From the IMG/VR virus record IMGVR_UViG_3300048104_000741, positions 8,650 through 72,649 of that record: 64,000 nucleotides of DNA. One strand, given 5' to 3'. Under the pieces are notes generated by a model. It had not been told where the DNA came from, did not search any database, and saw only the letters and a program-made list of their open reading frames with translations. Source of the stretch: a virus. The translations under genes were made by a program, and so were the position numbers. Positions 52,799 to 62,972 of this stretch are shown piece after piece; positions within the stretch are counted from its first letter, which is position 1; each line of letters opens with the position of its first letter.

Positions 52799-52870
52799 TA
52801 AGTGGTTGAGTATTAGTGACTTACAGCTGGCGGCTGCCGGATTCCTAAGTTGATGATTATCAATTACTTA
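52799..52870 (+). repeat. 72-bp box-core-box element R1
   Basis: TAAGT-N15-ACTTA, 22-nt core with cggcTgccg, TAAGT-N15-ACTTA. Confidence 0.9.
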
Positions 52871-52933
52871 GCCAAGTTAAATTAATTTAACTTTTTTCTT
52901 GCTATATTTGAAGAACTACCTTAGTATGTATAT

Positions 52934-53335
52934 ATGATTAAGAGAAACCAACACGACCCACGATACATCATCAAGTCAAACCGACCTGTTTATGTATACA
53001 AGAATCTTCACAAGGACTGCTGGTCAGTCAAGCAACACGGATTAGTCAAGGCTCATATCCCAAGAGATCATTCAATTGGAATGTGGGATTGCTATTTCCA
53101 TGTTGATGTTAAGGGCAGAGAAAAGGTTCTTCGTGAGAAGCGGAAGAATGTTCATGCGTTTGTCAAGGGTTATCTTCAAGATGCAGAGAATGTAGACACC
53201 GATCTTCCCGCGACAGAGGTAACATATAATCCATATAAGTATGAGACTTTTGTTGACAAGAACACCGAAAAGTTTGTATACTATGCAGATCAAGTTTTAC
53301 TACAACACAACCAAGTAACCGCCTACACAAGATGA
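52934..53335 (+). CDS. Conserved phage hypothetical protein
   Basis: VYKNLHK.CWS, REKRKNVHAFV.G, YNPY; leaderless TTGCTA-17-TAGTAT-6-ATG. Confidence 0.75.
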   Translation: MIKRNQHDPRYIIKSNRPVYVYKNLHKDCWSVKQHGLVKAHIPRDHSIGMWDCYFHVDVKGREKVLREKRKNVHAFVKGYLQDAENVDTDLPATEVTYNPYKYETFVDKNTEKFVYYADQVLLQHNQVTAYTR

Positions 53336-55252
53336 GAATAGAAGAAAGAATGATAGACTATGCCCAAAAGTGGTATAAAGAAAACGACCTAGAGACAGAG
53401 AAAAAGAACGGAAACGATCTTTATCTTCGAGTCAATGACAATGTATTTACTGAAGTCTCACACTGCGACATCAGACAAAAAGCCATTTTATGGTTGCAAT
53501 CAGAACTAGAAGGAGTTATGTATAATTAAATGAAAGAAGAATTAAATGCAATTAAACATTCTATTGACGGACTCAGCGATGAAATGCTAGAACATCGCAG
53601 ACACGCTAATATGGATGACCTTGTTAAAGTTATGAAAAGCATTAACGAAAACCTCTACTCAATCACATTTGCTCTTGAGGATTTGGCTAAAGAGAAAAAG
53701 ATGCAAAACGAGTTGACAGTCGCACTAAAATAGTTTAGTTTTATATTATGAAACAATTATTAGTTAAAGTTCCCGTGTCACAATGCATTCAAGAAGTCCT
53801 CGACTATATTCAGTATAGCGAAATGGAGGGCGAAGTGGATCCGACAGATTCGTGGTACACCACATATCAATCACTACAAGAGTTGCAAGAGAAAGTTCTT
53901 GATGAAGAAGAAATGTCTTGACACAATTATTCATTTAGTATAGTTTTATATTATGGAAGAAACAATAGACATCACACCAAAATGGACAGCAGTCGTTAGA
54001 ATATTAACTGAAGTGCTGAAAAGCCCAAATGCCGGAAATGCAGATAAGCAAAATGCCACCAATGAATTGCTAAAACTTGCAAAGATCGTGGACGATCAAA
54101 ACGAAAGAGCAAAACAATGACACAAGCAAAGATAAGAGAAACCATTCTAGACATAGTCAGAGGAGAAATGGCATATGCCGATCCAATGTCCAAAGTATGC
54201 CTAGAGCAACATGAACGCCATCCTGAAAAGTTTCCACTTGGTAGCACTTTTCAGTCCGCAGAAGAAGTTTTAGAAGATATTGTTTTAAGCTTGACCTCAT
54301 TGCAAAATGAGCTTAGGATAGAATCATCTTTTCAATCAGCACAACTATAAACACAAGGAACAACATGACAAAAGCACAGATAGAATCAAGAGTAGAAGGA
54401 TGGAATTGGAACATGAACATCTTCGAGATATACGATGAACTCAGAGATGGGCATACAGGAGAAGAGCAAGAGCAACTTTTAACTCATGCATATAATTATT
54501 TCAATAACGATGTAATGATTAAAGAGCTTGCGAATCATTTTTGCGTAACTATTCATACAGACGAAGACTCACCGATACCTTGCTAAAATGAAGATGACAG
54601 AGATAAACATAAGAAACGAAAACATAATCCCTCAAGGTCAACATCTTGCCGTGATCGAAAGAAGCGATTTCTATAAGGACGACTACGATCAAGCTCTTAT
54701 TCTTTATGGATGGGATGAGGTTGGGACATTTGAATCAGAGTTTAAAGATCCGATTTATGTTTTTATTTCTTGACATCATCTAAAAAACCTACATAATTAA
54801 AATCATGAACAACTACATAGAAGCAGTATGCGAAGGCAAACCACTTGACCTTCCTAATTATAACGAAAATTCAGAGCAATGGGAGATTTACTTTGAGGAG
54901 TCAGCGACACCTTATCACCCATACGATCAAAGAGATTTACTCGCAGTAAGTTTCGATTCAGCACAAGAAGCTTGCGACGCTTATAATTTCTACAACACGA
55001 GAGGAGAAAGCAAATAACATGAAAAAACTATTATTAAAAATTTATCGTTGGGTTAATCCTCTATACCAAGTGGTTTATACCACCCAAGACGGAAGAACAG
55101 AAATGTACACAATTACAGAACCTCAATATAAAAACGAATTCGGCAACATAAAAGAAGGTAAAAAAGTTGTGGGTTTTAGAAGCTTTTGTATCAATCGAGA
55201 TGGCATTCGCTCTTTTCGCTACGATAGAATCACAGCCTTAAATAAAGTTTAA
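53332..55252 (+). other. Cluster of small hypothetical ORFs in module R1-R2
   Basis: Co-oriented ORFs of 55-77 aa with internal promoters. Confidence 0.65.
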
Positions 55253-55412
55253 TATGAAAAATACTGAAGTTAAAAAAGACGGATTAAAAACCTCCCTAAG
55301 AAAGTTTGGGCATATGCTAGCCCATAGAGAAATGAGAGGAGATGTCTCCGAGAGTTTTAAAGAGAAAGCAGAAAAACATAGGCTCAAGCTAAGAGCTTTT
55401 TACAAGCAGAGG

Positions 55413-55484
55413 TAAGTCCCTCTAGGTCAACGACTTGCTCGAGCCGCTGCCGCGCGACTTAAGTCGCTGATAGGCAACAATTTA
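55413..55484 (+). repeat. Element R2
   Basis: TAAGT-N15-ACTTG, core ccgcTgccg (22 nt), TAAGT-N15-ATTTA. Confidence 0.88.
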
Positions 55485-55547
55485 CAAAAACATATTTTAT
55501 TTAACTTTTTTCTTGCGTTAATTATTAAATTAGCTTACTATGTATAT

Positions 55548-55667
55548 ATGAAAGCGAGAGAGATAAAGATAAGAAAGCAAATCCTTTTTACTAAGGCTCG
55601 CCCTTTCAAAATGAAGAATAAAACACTTGACAGAAAACTCAAACACAAAAAAAGATATGAATATTAA
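55548..55667 (+). CDS. 39-aa basic peptide (not in ORF track)
   Basis: MKAREIKIRKQILFTKARPFKMKNKTLDRKLKHKKRYEY; leaderless TTGCGT-17-TACTAT-6-ATG. Confidence 0.6.
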   Translation: MKAREIKIRKQILFTKARPFKMKNKTLDRKLKHKKRYEY

Positions 55668-60688: not shown

Positions 60689-60710
60689 GGGAAGTTGACT
60701 TATTCTACTA

Positions 60711-61683
60711 CTATATTAGATCATAGTAGCGAGGTGAATAGTCAACTTTGCAAGAGGTTTCGTCAATCTCAAACTCTTCATCTTTAAGTATTTTTTTGAC
60801 TCTTTCAACTTCATCAAGCTTGATAAAGTCAACTTTTTTACCATTTAAGTCAAAAGCTTCAACTTGTTCAACTTTTTCAAAGTATCCAATTAAAGAAACA
60901 GATGAAACTTGATCGCCCCAAAGGTTTTCAATTTCGTCAGTCCATAAAGAACAAGTTAATTCGATATAAGATCCGTCTTCGTCCGAGTAGGAACAAGTCA
61001 AGATTTCTTCGTCAATTTCGTAAAGCTCAAAAGCTGTATCTAAATTTTTCATAGTTATTTTTTCCTTATAGTTTTTCGGTTAACATTTCTTCTCTAACGG
61101 CTTTATTTGCGATAGTAACCATTTCTTCCATCCAATCATTTACATTTTCGATAGAAGTCATTCCATTTCTTCTAATATCGTGACCAACCGAGAATTTTAT
61201 TGATCTTGCCAAAGTAGCAACTTCTAAAAGAGCTTTTGATAAATTATAAGCTTTTTCGTTCTTATATGCGTTGTTGTCGATCACATCAAAGAGTGAGATT
61301 TTGTCTGTAGTAGTATTTTCCATATATATAAAGTAAACTATGTTTTAATTAATTGCGAATTTTATTTTAGTTATTTTGCTGATTGCTTAATCATTTCAAA
61401 ACTCCACACATGCCCACCGGCACATTCCCAAAGGTCAAAGGATTCAGTCATGGGGCTTGCTTGAATACGAACAAGGTTATTATCTTGAATGAATTTTTTT
61501 ATTTCTTCTGTCATCATATTTTTTTCTTTAGTTATTTTCTAGTAAAAGAAAAGAGCTTGTAATCTTAATTCCATGGCTTTGGGCTTCCTTGAAAGAATCA
61601 AAAGAGCCGGAGTAATTATTTCCGATATATAAATCGAAAACGACACTTGACCAAGTAGAGAGAGGTTTAATCTTAATTTCCAT
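60711..61683 (-). other. Minus-strand hypothetical ORFs in module R7-R8
   Basis: 60711-61052, 61066-61323 and short ORFs up to a leaderless ATG at 61683. Confidence 0.65.
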
Positions 61684-61900
61684 ATATATAATCTAAGGGT
61701 TGAAGCTCATTAAGTCAAGCCGTTTGAGTTTTATTTTAAAGAAAGTTTTAACGAATTAAATTGTATAAGTTATATAAATTTATAAACTATACTTTTATTA
61801 TTTATATTATATATACATTACCGGCTTATATTATGTATATAAGTTTGATTTATTTAATGTATAAAAGTTGGATTGGCACGATACCTGAACACCACTTACG

Positions 61901-61971
61901 CAAGTCGTTGTTTATCAGCGACTTACGCCGGCGGCAGCCGCCCCGCTAAGTCACTGATTATCAGTAACTTA
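61901..61971 (-). repeat. Element R8 (71 bp)
   Basis: caagtcgttgtttatcagcgactta, core cggcAgccg, taagtcactgattatcagtaactta. Confidence 0.92.
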
Positions 61972-62127
61972 GGGAGCTGATTATTAGCTAATCGAGCCTA
62001 CTATTAGGACAAACAAACAGGGGGATAGGATAATGCATCCAAGTTCTATGGTTAAGATTAAAAGTTCCATTATTTAATTGAAGAGTACAAGGTTAAAGAG
62101 AGGGCGATAAACACTATTATAATCATA

Positions 62128-62728
62128 TTAATCAACTAAGATTAAAGGCTCAGGCAATGGAGTTTTTGCGATATACTCGGCAAGCTCATTATGTGCGATC
62201 CTGTCGAGATCTGCCTGTGCAGATATAACCTGCATTTGAGCAGAAGCAGAGCCATTTTCTGCGTCGTCGTTGTTGTTGTCGATGATGGCTTGAAGCCTTC
62301 TTTTTTCTTTTTTTAATGTATCGTTCATAAGTATAATTTAAAGGATTTTTTGTTTATTGTCAAGCTATTTGAGAGAATTATTTATCAAACATTATTTCTA
62401 AGCAAGAATCGAATTGCTCAAGGAAGATCCTTGGTGCATCAGTAACAAACCAAGTTTTACTCGCGTTTGTAATTAGCCTTTCTGTGAGTTTGTCGCTTAC
62501 AACCTTTAAGAGATCTGTGTTTTTGTAGATGTTTGACTCGGTCAATTCGCCTGTCTTTTCATTTATTAACTTAGCCATGTACACATCAATGTATTCGGGA
62601 CGATATTGTTGACTTAGCATAATTTCATCTTGGCAAGCTATCGCCTCGACTCGGTAAGATTCACCTTCGATGCCCATGATAAAGTTAAAAGTAAATTCCT
62701 CTGTGTCTGTATTATATAATGATTTCAT
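62128..62728 (-). other. Two minus-strand hypothetical ORFs in module R8-R9
   Basis: 62128-62328 and 62378-62728, both leaderless. Confidence 0.7.
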
Positions 62729-62900
62729 ATATATAAACTAAGGGAAATTTTAACTAAAGTCAAATTTATTTACAATTACCTTTCAACTATGTTTTTGCAC
62801 AATGCTATTGAGCGAGTGGCTTATAGTGCAAGCTTTAAAGCTGCACTATTCTACTGCAAGGCAGTCTGATAGGTTACTTTTCTGGTGATCGCACCCCTCG

Positions 62901-62972
62901 TAAGTCGTTGTTTATCAGTGACTTACGCCGGCGGCAGCGGCCCCGCCTAAGTCACTGACTATCAGCAACTTA
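62901..62972 (-). repeat. Element R9
   Basis: taagtcgttgtttatcagtgactta, core cggcAgcgg, taagtcactgactatcagcaactta. Confidence 0.92.

Follow-up and report, generated by a model that had tools for sequence, protein, structure and literature searches.

The DNA analyzed here (the window; G+C 33.4%) comprises the final 64 kb of a 72,649-base record in IMG/VR (IMGVR_UViG_3300048104_000741; CheckV completeness 53%) and derives from an uncultured marine phage. Between positions 52799 and 62972, within a block of small, early-type genes, we identified nine copies of a composite element in which two boxes flank a GC-rich core. Elements 1 to 5 lie on the plus strand (52799-52870, 55413-55484, 56878-56949, 57865-57936, and 59072-59143) and elements 6 to 9 on the minus strand (59915-59986, 60618-60688, 61901-61971, and 62901-62972), with start-to-start spacings of 2614, 1465, 987, 1207, 843, 703, 1283, and 1000 bp. 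All nine have the same geometry: a 25-bp box, a core of 21-22 bp with a G+C content of 73-95%, and a second 25-bp box. The core centre reads GCTGC in element 1 and, on the plus strand, GCAGC in element 6, which marks the point where rightward and leftward genes converge; elements 7, 8, and 9 are found among the leftward genes. The leading TAA of element 2 is the stop codon of an open reading frame (ORF) at 55254-55415.

A first-pass annotation of the window had listed nine copies with starts from 52799 to 62901, none in the first 52 kb, and had described this fixed box-core-box layout, a CSGC-W-GCSG core, and positions between genes or at gene ends. All of these statements hold for the window copies, and the array lies far beyond what shuffled sequence produces. 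A pattern for the full element matched eight of the nine copies (12 matches on both strands) and nothing in 100 dinucleotide shuffles; the copy at 59915 escapes the pattern because its start reads TAACT. When the 64 kb were scanned with a symmetrised weight matrix for the box at a threshold of at least 8 bits, the 18 matches returned were precisely the two boxes of each of the nine elements (lowest score, 18.8 bits), and 20 mononucleotide shuffles gave a mean of 0.95 matches. Across the whole 72,649-base record, the box pattern with up to two mismatches gave 16 matches per strand, versus two for a reversed control pattern. All of the record's box-pattern matches fall within 52799-62972, and no copies occur elsewhere in the 72.6 kb.

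Related phages carry the same kind of array. The element pattern was found in 24 stretches of 15 IMG/VR contigs, and a profile built from the nine copies adds 95 copies in those contigs, giving 86 non-redundant copies. We also collected 53 related loci, recognised by a conserved block protein, on contigs of up to 213 kb; 42 of them contain profile matches. Five phages that were compared have 9, 9, 10, 9, and 11 elements, each in a single block of small genes, and whole-record scans of five relatives confine the boxes to one block of ~10 kb apiece. In the complete relative G001 (205,857 bases, CheckV 100%) the block is internal, at 25.2-34.3 kb, and in three records it lies near contig ends. 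Among 185,579 bacterial and archaeal species, represented by one genome each, there were only two pattern matches, neither of which fits the element profile, and GenBank phages gave no DNA match by megablast of 12 kb or by blastn of one element with its promoter. The profile scan suggested by the first-pass annotation thus succeeded in related phages and yielded nothing matching the profile in the species genomes. Likewise, the identity with a host family of repetitive extragenic palindromes (REPs) or miniature inverted-repeat transposable elements (MITEs) that it had raised found no counterpart there. We take the element family to be phage-specific. Fourteen sequencing runs contain half or more of the sampled words; every one carries a marine or seawater label, and 2 of the 14 may be the source of the DNA. 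The contigs of one independent seawater run break in or beside elements 2, 4, 7, and 8 (at 55455, 57962, 60663, and 61975), as expected if the repeats confuse assembly; this may explain why several records of the clade end near the block.

A promoter module follows five of the nine window elements at a fixed distance. Downstream of elements 1, 2, 3, and 5, a T-rich stretch and a weak -35 begin after 20-22 nt, and an ATG lies 63-64 nt past the element, so placed that the two box centres are ~75 and ~122 bp upstream of the presumed start. These modules, all on the plus strand, read TTGCTA-17-TAGTAT-6-ATG (52899-52936), the ATG of which opens a 133-aa ORF; TTGCGT-17-TACTAT-6-ATG (55513-55550, a position read from the sequence), which leads into a 39-codon ORF; TTGCTA-17-TACTAT-6-ATG (56978-57015), at a GP88-family gene; and TTGTGT-17-TAGTTT-6-ATG (59171-59208). 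Element 4 is followed by a variant, TTGACT-17-TAGTTT-6-ATG (57974-58011, plus strand), 38 nt past the element. Elements 6 to 9 are accompanied by leftward genes with their own TTGACT promoters 138-183 bp away. On the other side, intrinsic terminators stand 30 nt upstream of element 1 (52746-52769, plus strand), 25 nt upstream of element 3 (56823-56853, plus strand), and upstream of element 9 in the direction of transcription (63105-63076, minus strand).

This arrangement recurs in the relatives: of 336 distinct composites, 160 carry the module at a distance that is fixed within each spacing class. In most promoter-linked copies of the five compared phages the start codon is 62-64 nt past the element. 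Grouped by box spacing, counted between neighbouring boxes from box start to box start, distinct composites with the T-rich/-35 motif beside the element number 54 of 108 in the 46-48-bp class, 84 of 163 in the 41-42-bp class, and 17 of 39 in the 53-bp class. The distance of the motif is 20-22 nt in 45 of 55 motif matches in the first of these classes, and 24-25 nt in 60 of 88 and 16 of 17 matches in the other two. Only 23 of 116 element-linked promoters have a consensus -35 (TTGAC[AT]), compared with 171 of 270 element-free promoters (odds ratio 7.0; the copies are homologous rather than independent, and the P value is not literal). The boxes hold a fixed distance to a distinct promoter class and bound gene cassettes, and both the fixed link to a downstream promoter and the role as a cassette boundary were overlooked in the first-pass annotation. 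We propose that the element is the upstream half of a composite consisting of, in order, a terminator in some cases, a box, a GC spacer and a second box, an AT- or T-rich stretch, a sigma70-type promoter with a weak -35, and a leaderless start.

Promoters leading directly into start codons are also abundant away from the elements. The strict form TTGAC[AT]-17-TAnnnT-6-ATG occurs 23 times in the window, versus a mean of 0.05 in 100 dinucleotide shuffles, and a looser form opens ORFs of at least 40 codons in 39 places (a count made without a shuffle control). From 25980 to 63889, dozens of small genes on both strands have their own sigma70-type promoter, with the ATG 7 nt past the -10 and no Shine-Dalgarno sequence; UvdE (26015) starts at such an ATG. 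This suggests the mass use of leaderless mRNAs in the region. The 39-codon ORF that follows element 2 (55548-55667, plus strand) begins MKAREIKIRK; in several relatives the same opening codons are found downstream of elements. The start of the next long ORF comes ~110 nt further along.

Most families of small genes in the block are common to the five compared phages, and the cassettes between elements have been rearranged. The element-bounded cassettes [7..8], [10..12], and [13 2] occur in three different orders: [7..8][10..12][13 2] in three phages, [10..12][13 2][26..25][7 8] in one, and [13 2][7 8][10..] in another. The adjacency of two genes is broken in another phage for 64 of 91 pairs that lie across an element, versus 51 of 231 pairs without an element between them (odds ratio 8.4; the comparisons are pairwise and not independent). 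Two indels involve the element itself. A 141-bp unit comprising 7 nt, the element, and the promoter, and ending at the ATG, is found in one phage and is missing from the window. A second site occurs in a filled and an empty form that differ by a 121-bp unit made up of the element, the AT-rich stretch, the -35, and the spacer; the two forms share the -10. The right-hand limits of the two indels differ, one being at the ATG and the other between the spacer and the -10, and neither indel shows a target-site duplication. Thus, cassettes and element-plus-promoter units have been moved or lost at the junctions.

The first-pass annotation had suggested a search for phage genes for HU/IHF, a tyrosine recombinase, or an HUH enzyme. 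In five records including G001, we identified no tyrosine or serine recombinase, integrase, resolvase, or Y1/HUH transposase family (PF01797 is absent), and no match to PF00216 (HU/IHF) above the cut-off. A weak PF00216 match (14.9 bits; cut-off 22.4) occurs in a 70-aa frame in the element block of G004 (L029, C1:16137-16247), which was not counted as a gene. Given the differing indel limits, the lack of duplications, and the absence of recombinase families, the pattern fits homologous exchange between look-alike junctions and not transposition or site-specific recombination.

To examine what is conserved in the boxes, we aligned 85 non-redundant copies (86 were found; one incomplete copy was left out) and pooled their 170 boxes. 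The conserved bases are T1, A2, A3, G4, T5, Y8, T9, G10, A11, T12, W13, A14, T15, C16, A17, R18, S20, A21, C22, T23, T24, and A25. Conservation reaches 99-100% at A2, A3, T9, A17, T23, and T24; in the right half it is 86% at W13, 86% at C16, 99% at A17, 97% at R18, and 99-100% at T23, T24, and R25. A structure of three hairpins pairs in 75.2% of cells, versus 75.0% in column shuffles (162 of 500 shuffles score as high), and its covariation score is 0.130, versus 0.125 in shuffles (92 of 500 as high). At the variable box pairs 6-20, 7-19, and 8-18, Watson-Crick combinations occur in just 15, 15, and 36 of the 85 copies (z at most 0), and the central bases of paired boxes tend to identity, not complementarity (z = -3.9). 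Among 216 box cells there are 21 G.T and 18 A.C combinations and hence no strand bias. No clear covariation was found among the box, core, junction, and long-range pairings tested. Junction hairpins between an inner box arm and the core flank were rejected (one column with z = 3.4, the others at most 2), as was a long hairpin between box 1 and box 2 (z > 3 in 1 of 25 columns). None of the covariance models of Rfam 15 matched the elements at E ≤ 1 or at the gathering score. Fixed-base conservation without covariation is the outcome that the first-pass annotation had named as deciding against an RNA hairpin, and we therefore interpret the boxes as double-stranded protein-recognition sites rather than hairpins.

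The boxes resemble binding sites of IHF. The exact consensus WATCARNNNNTTR has 20 matches in the window, 14 of which fall within the 648 bp of elements, corresponding to 21.6 per kb in elements and 0.095 per kb outside. The first-pass claim of a match on both strands was correct for the boxes at 60664 and 61947. Every box arm reads WATCAR-N4-TTR, in agreement with the IHF consensus. In the alignment, the exact consensus is present per arm in 18-38 of the 85 copies, and in 56-70 of 85 with at most one mismatch. As described in PMC1874591, the canonical IHF site has WATCAA near its centre and TTR four bases further on, two AA steps nine bp apart at the proline kinks, and an optional A-tract, and Escherichia coli IHF is a heterodimer on an asymmetric 34-bp site. 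The box steps Y8-T9 and A17-R18 are 97-100% conserved and 9 bp apart, which is the proline-kink spacing given there. Overall, three of the four canonical sequence elements are present, and on both strands. The consensus sequences of Fis, Fur, FNR, CRP, and DnaA show only partial likeness to the boxes.

The core is far more variable than the boxes that enclose it. At the 53 related loci, neighbouring boxes fall into spacing classes of 41-42 bp (172 box pairs; core of 16-17 nt, 90% G+C), 46-48 bp (147 pairs; core of 21-23 nt; the class of the window), 50 bp (9 pairs; core of 25 nt), and 53 bp (43 pairs; core of 28 nt), so that core length ranges from 16 to 28 bp. The centre GGCWGCC is nearly invariant in the sub-lineage of the window, and core sequences are unrelated between spacing classes. 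Dyad symmetry of the core barely exceeds that of shuffles of the same composition (4.15 versus 3.81 and 4.48 versus 4.07 paired bases). One relative, with ~88% nucleotide identity in the flanking genes, belongs to the 53-bp class and has direct instead of inverted boxes. Two related lineages have cores that form a terminator-like hairpin, AAAATCGC...GCGATTTT, with a T run; the copies of the window lack a T run behind the core. Because core sequence and length vary and the dyad is near chance, the conserved features are the boxes and a GC-rich spacer, and not a specific dyad or a fixed helical phase. The first-pass annotation had proposed a DNA-architecture site at which two bends present the central dyad to a dedicated machine. 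The architectural part is consistent with the protein-site conservation of the boxes and their IHF-consensus arms; a specific dyad for a machine is not supported, given the variation in core sequence and length across the 53 loci.

The ATCAACGACTTA box is also present, again in pairs, ahead of terminator-promoter units in an unrelated phage of Stenotrophomonas, DLP6. There, CAACGACTTA occurs 24 times, versus 0 and 1 for a control pattern, and forms eight pairs 25-26 bp apart. In the DLP6 layout, the end of a gene is followed by two direct AAATCAACGACTTA boxes; behind these come a GC hairpin and its T run, and then a -35 of the TTTAC type and a -10 reading TATACT or TATAAT. This is the layout of a promoter-early stem-loop cassette (PeSL) preceded by boxes. 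In the DLP6 paper (PMC5349666), 25 PHIRE "phage promoters" are described, of which 22 stand in groups of two, and rows of the terminator table begin with the end of the box. Based on the counts, the pairing (24 sites, 8 pairs), and these table rows, we infer that the 25 PHIRE sites are this box motif. DLP6 thus resembles the marine phages in having the AAATCAACGACTTA box half, paired and pointing to a GC-rich hairpin and a sigma70/T4-early-type promoter at the heads of gene clusters. It differs in that its boxes form direct tandem repeats of 25 bp, lack a palindromic left arm, and are not separated by a GC spacer; they stand before a true terminator, are spread over 34-145 kb of a genome with 56% G+C, and were interpreted by the DLP6 authors as phage promoters (PMC5349666).

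DLP6 and G001 share only six ORFs, encoding PhoH, two sulfotransferases, an APS-kinase-like protein, and two ribonucleotide reductase chains; all are metabolic, and none is a DNA-binding regulator. Blastn with the DLP6 double box found no other GenBank phage, and our literature searches, with supplementary tables (PeSL lists and DLP6 promoters) outside their reach, turned up no description of the element except in the DLP6 paper. The presence of the same word in the same kind of place in two essentially unrelated phages favours a host factor over a phage factor. Given that the identical CGAC occupies positions that are free in the IHF consensus, a factor other than classical IHF is possible.

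Overall, we read the element as a regulatory junction to which a protein binds and which also serves as a linker for recombination, a reading that in our judgement has about an even chance of being right. We have less confidence that the bound protein is IHF proper. A host bending protein of the IHF/HU type may bind each box, as suggested by the WATCAR-N4-TTR arms and by the TT/AA steps 9 bp apart. Bends ~75 and ~122 bp upstream of the start, with a stiff, hard-to-melt GC spacer, could then help the adjacent weak promoter or insulate it. Such an effect would be relevant here, as almost all small genes of the block are preceded by a strong promoter of their own. Homologous recombination between look-alike junctions would permute, insert, and delete self-expressing cassettes, as proposed for PeSLs. 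With about ten look-alike junctions of ~130 bp within 10 kb, ordinary homologous recombination could suffice, and no dedicated recombinase would be needed.

A bolder extension, which we consider improbable as a whole, is that WATCAA-SGAC-TTA is the site of a conserved host bending factor (IHF, a homodimeric relative, or an unrecognised protein) that unrelated large proteobacterial phages have independently recruited as an upstream enhancer and topological insulator of early promoters. In the marine clade this site would have become part of a portable junction (two boxes around a GC clamp, then a promoter and a leaderless start), and the 10-kb block would thereby work as a recombinase-free, integron-like system in which self-expressing cassettes are shuffled and traded between phages.

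Several observations weigh against the junction reading. Roughly half of the elements lack a neighbouring promoter of the linked type, and the four window elements without one are all among leftward genes. The enrichment of breakpoints at elements could reflect operon boundaries that tolerate rearrangement. No element-element joints were seen in four sequencing runs; three of these consist of contigs, and in the raw-read run only 6 reads were placed, so that missing joints, ends, or element RNA carry little weight. As IHF sites, the boxes lack an A-tract and asymmetry: in the window's lineage the 5' half mirrors the 3' half, and such palindromic boxes are unlike the asymmetric site of E. coli IHF. 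S20, A21, and C22, which fall inside the N4 of the consensus, are conserved at 92-94%, and DLP6 has the same CGAC. Conserved S-A-C outside the E. coli consensus makes a different factor with overlapping specificity possible. In DLP6, a distance of only 25 bp between two sites leaves too little room for a pair of 34-bp footprints. The box-to-box distance shifts between lineages in roughly half-turn steps, which disfavours one fixed three-dimensional architecture. Finally, by a manual tally in the five phages, the central base is co-oriented with transcription in about 30 of 33 clear cases. A fully symmetric site would not predict this, but common ancestry can account for it. When copies are oriented so that the centre reads T, 32 have the promoter motif downstream and 8 have it upstream; since the skew is explained by common descent or by inversion of an entire block, the central base was set aside as evidence of polarity.

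What binds the boxes could also be encoded by the phages themselves. A phage-encoded or virion-injected dimeric regulator might use them as operators or activator sites to switch a sub-class of early promoters, with the likeness to IHF sites a coincidence. Positions 20-22, strongly conserved and outside the IHF consensus, would then be explained, the palindromic boxes of the window's lineage would suit a homodimer, and both the separate class of weak -35 promoters and the lack of boxes anywhere else in the genome would be expected. We nevertheless consider such a regulator unlikely. A comparison of 37 ORFs in or beside the block with Pfam gave no DNA-binding domain above the cut-off, although small novel proteins would escape it; the nearest matches are to sigma70 region 4 (24.4 bits; cut-off 25.7), in a G001 protein encoded past the block, and to a C2H2 zinc finger (18.3 bits; cut-off 27), in a 58-aa ORF at 50934-51110. 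Furthermore, the same box is used in DLP6, which has only the six metabolic proteins in common with G001. An action as RNA or single-stranded DNA, with a long hairpin or three hairpins serving as a terminator, attenuator, processing site, or stabiliser, seems less probable still. Six of the nine window copies fold far better than shuffles (z from -4.5 to -6.4), the central base follows transcription in most copies, cores resemble terminators in two related lineages, a true terminator follows the boxes in DLP6, and the leftward elements may lie inside transcription units. However, the other three copies fold no better than shuffles (z of 0.02, -1.33, and -1.74), covariation is missing, G.T and A.C cells are about equal in number, and elements 1, 3, and 9 have separate intrinsic terminators upstream, with no T run after the window cores. 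In contigs from RNA libraries, gene bodies and the manA motif are covered, and no element is covered among the pieces listed, which is weak evidence; Rfam is equally silent on the elements.

Mobile-DNA and injection scenarios fare worse. The proposal that two IHF/HU bends present the GC dyad to a recombinase, nickase, translocase, packaging, or injection machine, for instance in a T5-like staged entry, draws on the invariant GGCWGCC-like core of the window's sub-lineage, on the confinement of elements to a ~10-kb early-type block that is near contig ends in three records, and on the permutation of cassettes at elements. We judge it very improbable. Across the clade the core differs in both sequence and length, and the dyad is at chance level; no tyrosine/serine recombinase or Y1/HUH families were found in the five records, which also counts against a recombinase or nickase role for the dyad; and the differing right-hand limits of the two indels do not fit a site-specific cut. 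A terminal repeat or a staged-entry signal was rejected on the grounds that contig depth, in one run, is without a step at 52.8 kb, that no molecule ends or joints were seen, on minimal read evidence of 6 raw reads, and that the block is internal in the complete 205,857-base record. The lowest probability falls to a MITE-type mobile unit, in which the element itself would have been inserted by means of terminal inverted repeats. The ends are indeed 25-bp inverted repeats (TAAGT...ACTTA) of a non-coding unit 67-78 bp long, which is present in some phages and missing at the same site in others. Yet the units gained or lost (141 and 121 bp) include parts of promoters and lack target-site duplications, no transposase families were found, the two pattern matches among the species genomes fail the profile, and the copies stay in one block at a fixed distance from promoters.

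For the preferred reading, a regulatory junction that also links cassettes, the closest known kind is the PeSL cassette of T4-type phages. PeSLs combine a promoter with a junction of AT-rich sequence and a GC-rich stem-loop and mediate cassette shuffling (PMC2839356, PMC4122927). Like the element, a PeSL is a conserved intergenic composite of ~100 bp in which a GC-rich segment (polyG/polyC in PeSLs) and an AT-rich stretch precede a sigma70-type early promoter that reaches the start codon. Blocks of small genes are densely populated in both cases, with eight PeSLs in ~5 kb (PMC2839356) and 9-11 elements in ~10 kb. In both, the flanked cassettes change order or are missing from one related phage to another, for which recombination between copies has been proposed, with mini-circles or deletions as its products in PeSLs. 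As with PeSLs, the elements lie in a plastic region and flank genes that vary between related phages, as seen in the five phages and the two indels, even though most gene families are shared. The differences are equally clear. The best-conserved part here is the pair of 25-bp IHF-type boxes, and "IHF" is absent from the text of PMC2839356; paired protein-site boxes are a feature not described for PeSLs. The GC segment is a poor stem-loop or terminator in the window's copies, where separate terminators lie upstream of elements 1, 3, and 9, and terminator-like cores occur in other lineages and DLP6. There is no Shine-Dalgarno sequence, the start codon being 7 nt past the -10. A PeSL includes a strong sigma70-like early promoter with an AT-rich upstream region; of the present elements, about half carry a promoter and half lack one, with a -35 that is mostly non-consensus.

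Other systems share single features. The BIME-1/RIB repeats (bacterial interspersed mosaic elements) of E. coli also combine an IHF site with GC-rich palindromic units at the ends of transcription units, and their REPs are described as terminators, mRNA stabilisers, and topological insulators against transcription-induced supercoiling (PMC3333891). Their order is REP-IHF-REP and not box-GC-box, and they are chromosomal, number in the hundreds, and have Y1 (RAYT) transposases, whereas the present elements are phage-only and no Y1 was found. This analogy suggests a function and not a relative of the element. At lambda pL, Mu Pe, and ilvPG, an IHF site centred 75-90 bp upstream of a sigma70 promoter stimulates that promoter. 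The distance of the bending site is similar here, but those sites are single and asymmetric, unlike the paired, partly palindromic boxes with a GC spacer that are repeated about ten times. Integron attC sites are repeated imperfect palindromes that bound small gene cassettes, and T5 has repeats clustered in its early-entering block. Unlike attC sites, the elements come with no integrase-type gene and no single-strand-fold covariation, and each cassette has its own promoter; unlike the injection-stop repeats of T5, they were seen with neither a terminal position nor a depth step.

If the boxes are host-factor sites, they would amount to a simple, portable rule for immediate-early expression in uncultured marine phages: weak, leaderless promoters preceded by paired bending sites with a GC clamp. 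They would also help to predict where early-gene blocks and cassette boundaries lie in phage contigs from metagenomes. With the permuted cassettes, the concept behind PeSLs, in which regulatory linkers drive modular phage evolution, reaches beyond cultured T4-type phages, and the boxes would add a protein-binding component on which the PeSL authors, in the text cited, only speculate. The shared box in an unrelated soil Stenotrophomonas phage makes the host-factor hypothesis testable in a culturable system.

One further motif touches the elements. A sigma54-like word, TTGGCAC-N5-CTGAA (61874-61890, plus strand), lies 10-12 nt from an element and points into it; in the form TTGGCAC-N5-nTG this motif adjoins only one of the nine window elements. 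In a close relative such a word flanks two elements on both sides, pointing inward. This relative, L037, has sigma54-like TTGGCACG-N4-TTGY at ~4225-4254 and 4356-4372, and also beside the copy at 5499. A role in driving the neighbouring genes was ruled out.

The surroundings of the block include other recognisable features. Upstream are rIIA-like (756 aa) and rIIB-like (386 aa) genes at 44716-48257, a tRNA-Arg(TCT) at 49143-49219, and, directly ahead of the elements, a manA RNA motif (RF01745, 80.8 bits) at 51560-51770 on the plus strand. The best tblastn identity of rIIA/rIIB is ~25%. PF07068 (Gp23) was not found in G001 or G004, a negative that proves little because the same search also failed in every control genome. 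With rII identity this low and Gp23 not found, we dropped the label "T4-like." Beyond the block, relatives encode PhoH and the protein with the sub-threshold sigma70 region-4 match. Small genes at 63174-63458 (minus strand) and 59679-59909 (plus strand) match Kyano_Gp96 (PF23790, 36.8 bits) and DUF7249 (45.3 bits), gene content that is common to marine cyanophage-type myoviruses. Far from the block, the window encodes a phage transfer-messenger RNA (1771-2199, plus strand; Rfam RF00023, 118 bits), for which ARAGORN predicts an unusual tag peptide that does not end in ALAA.

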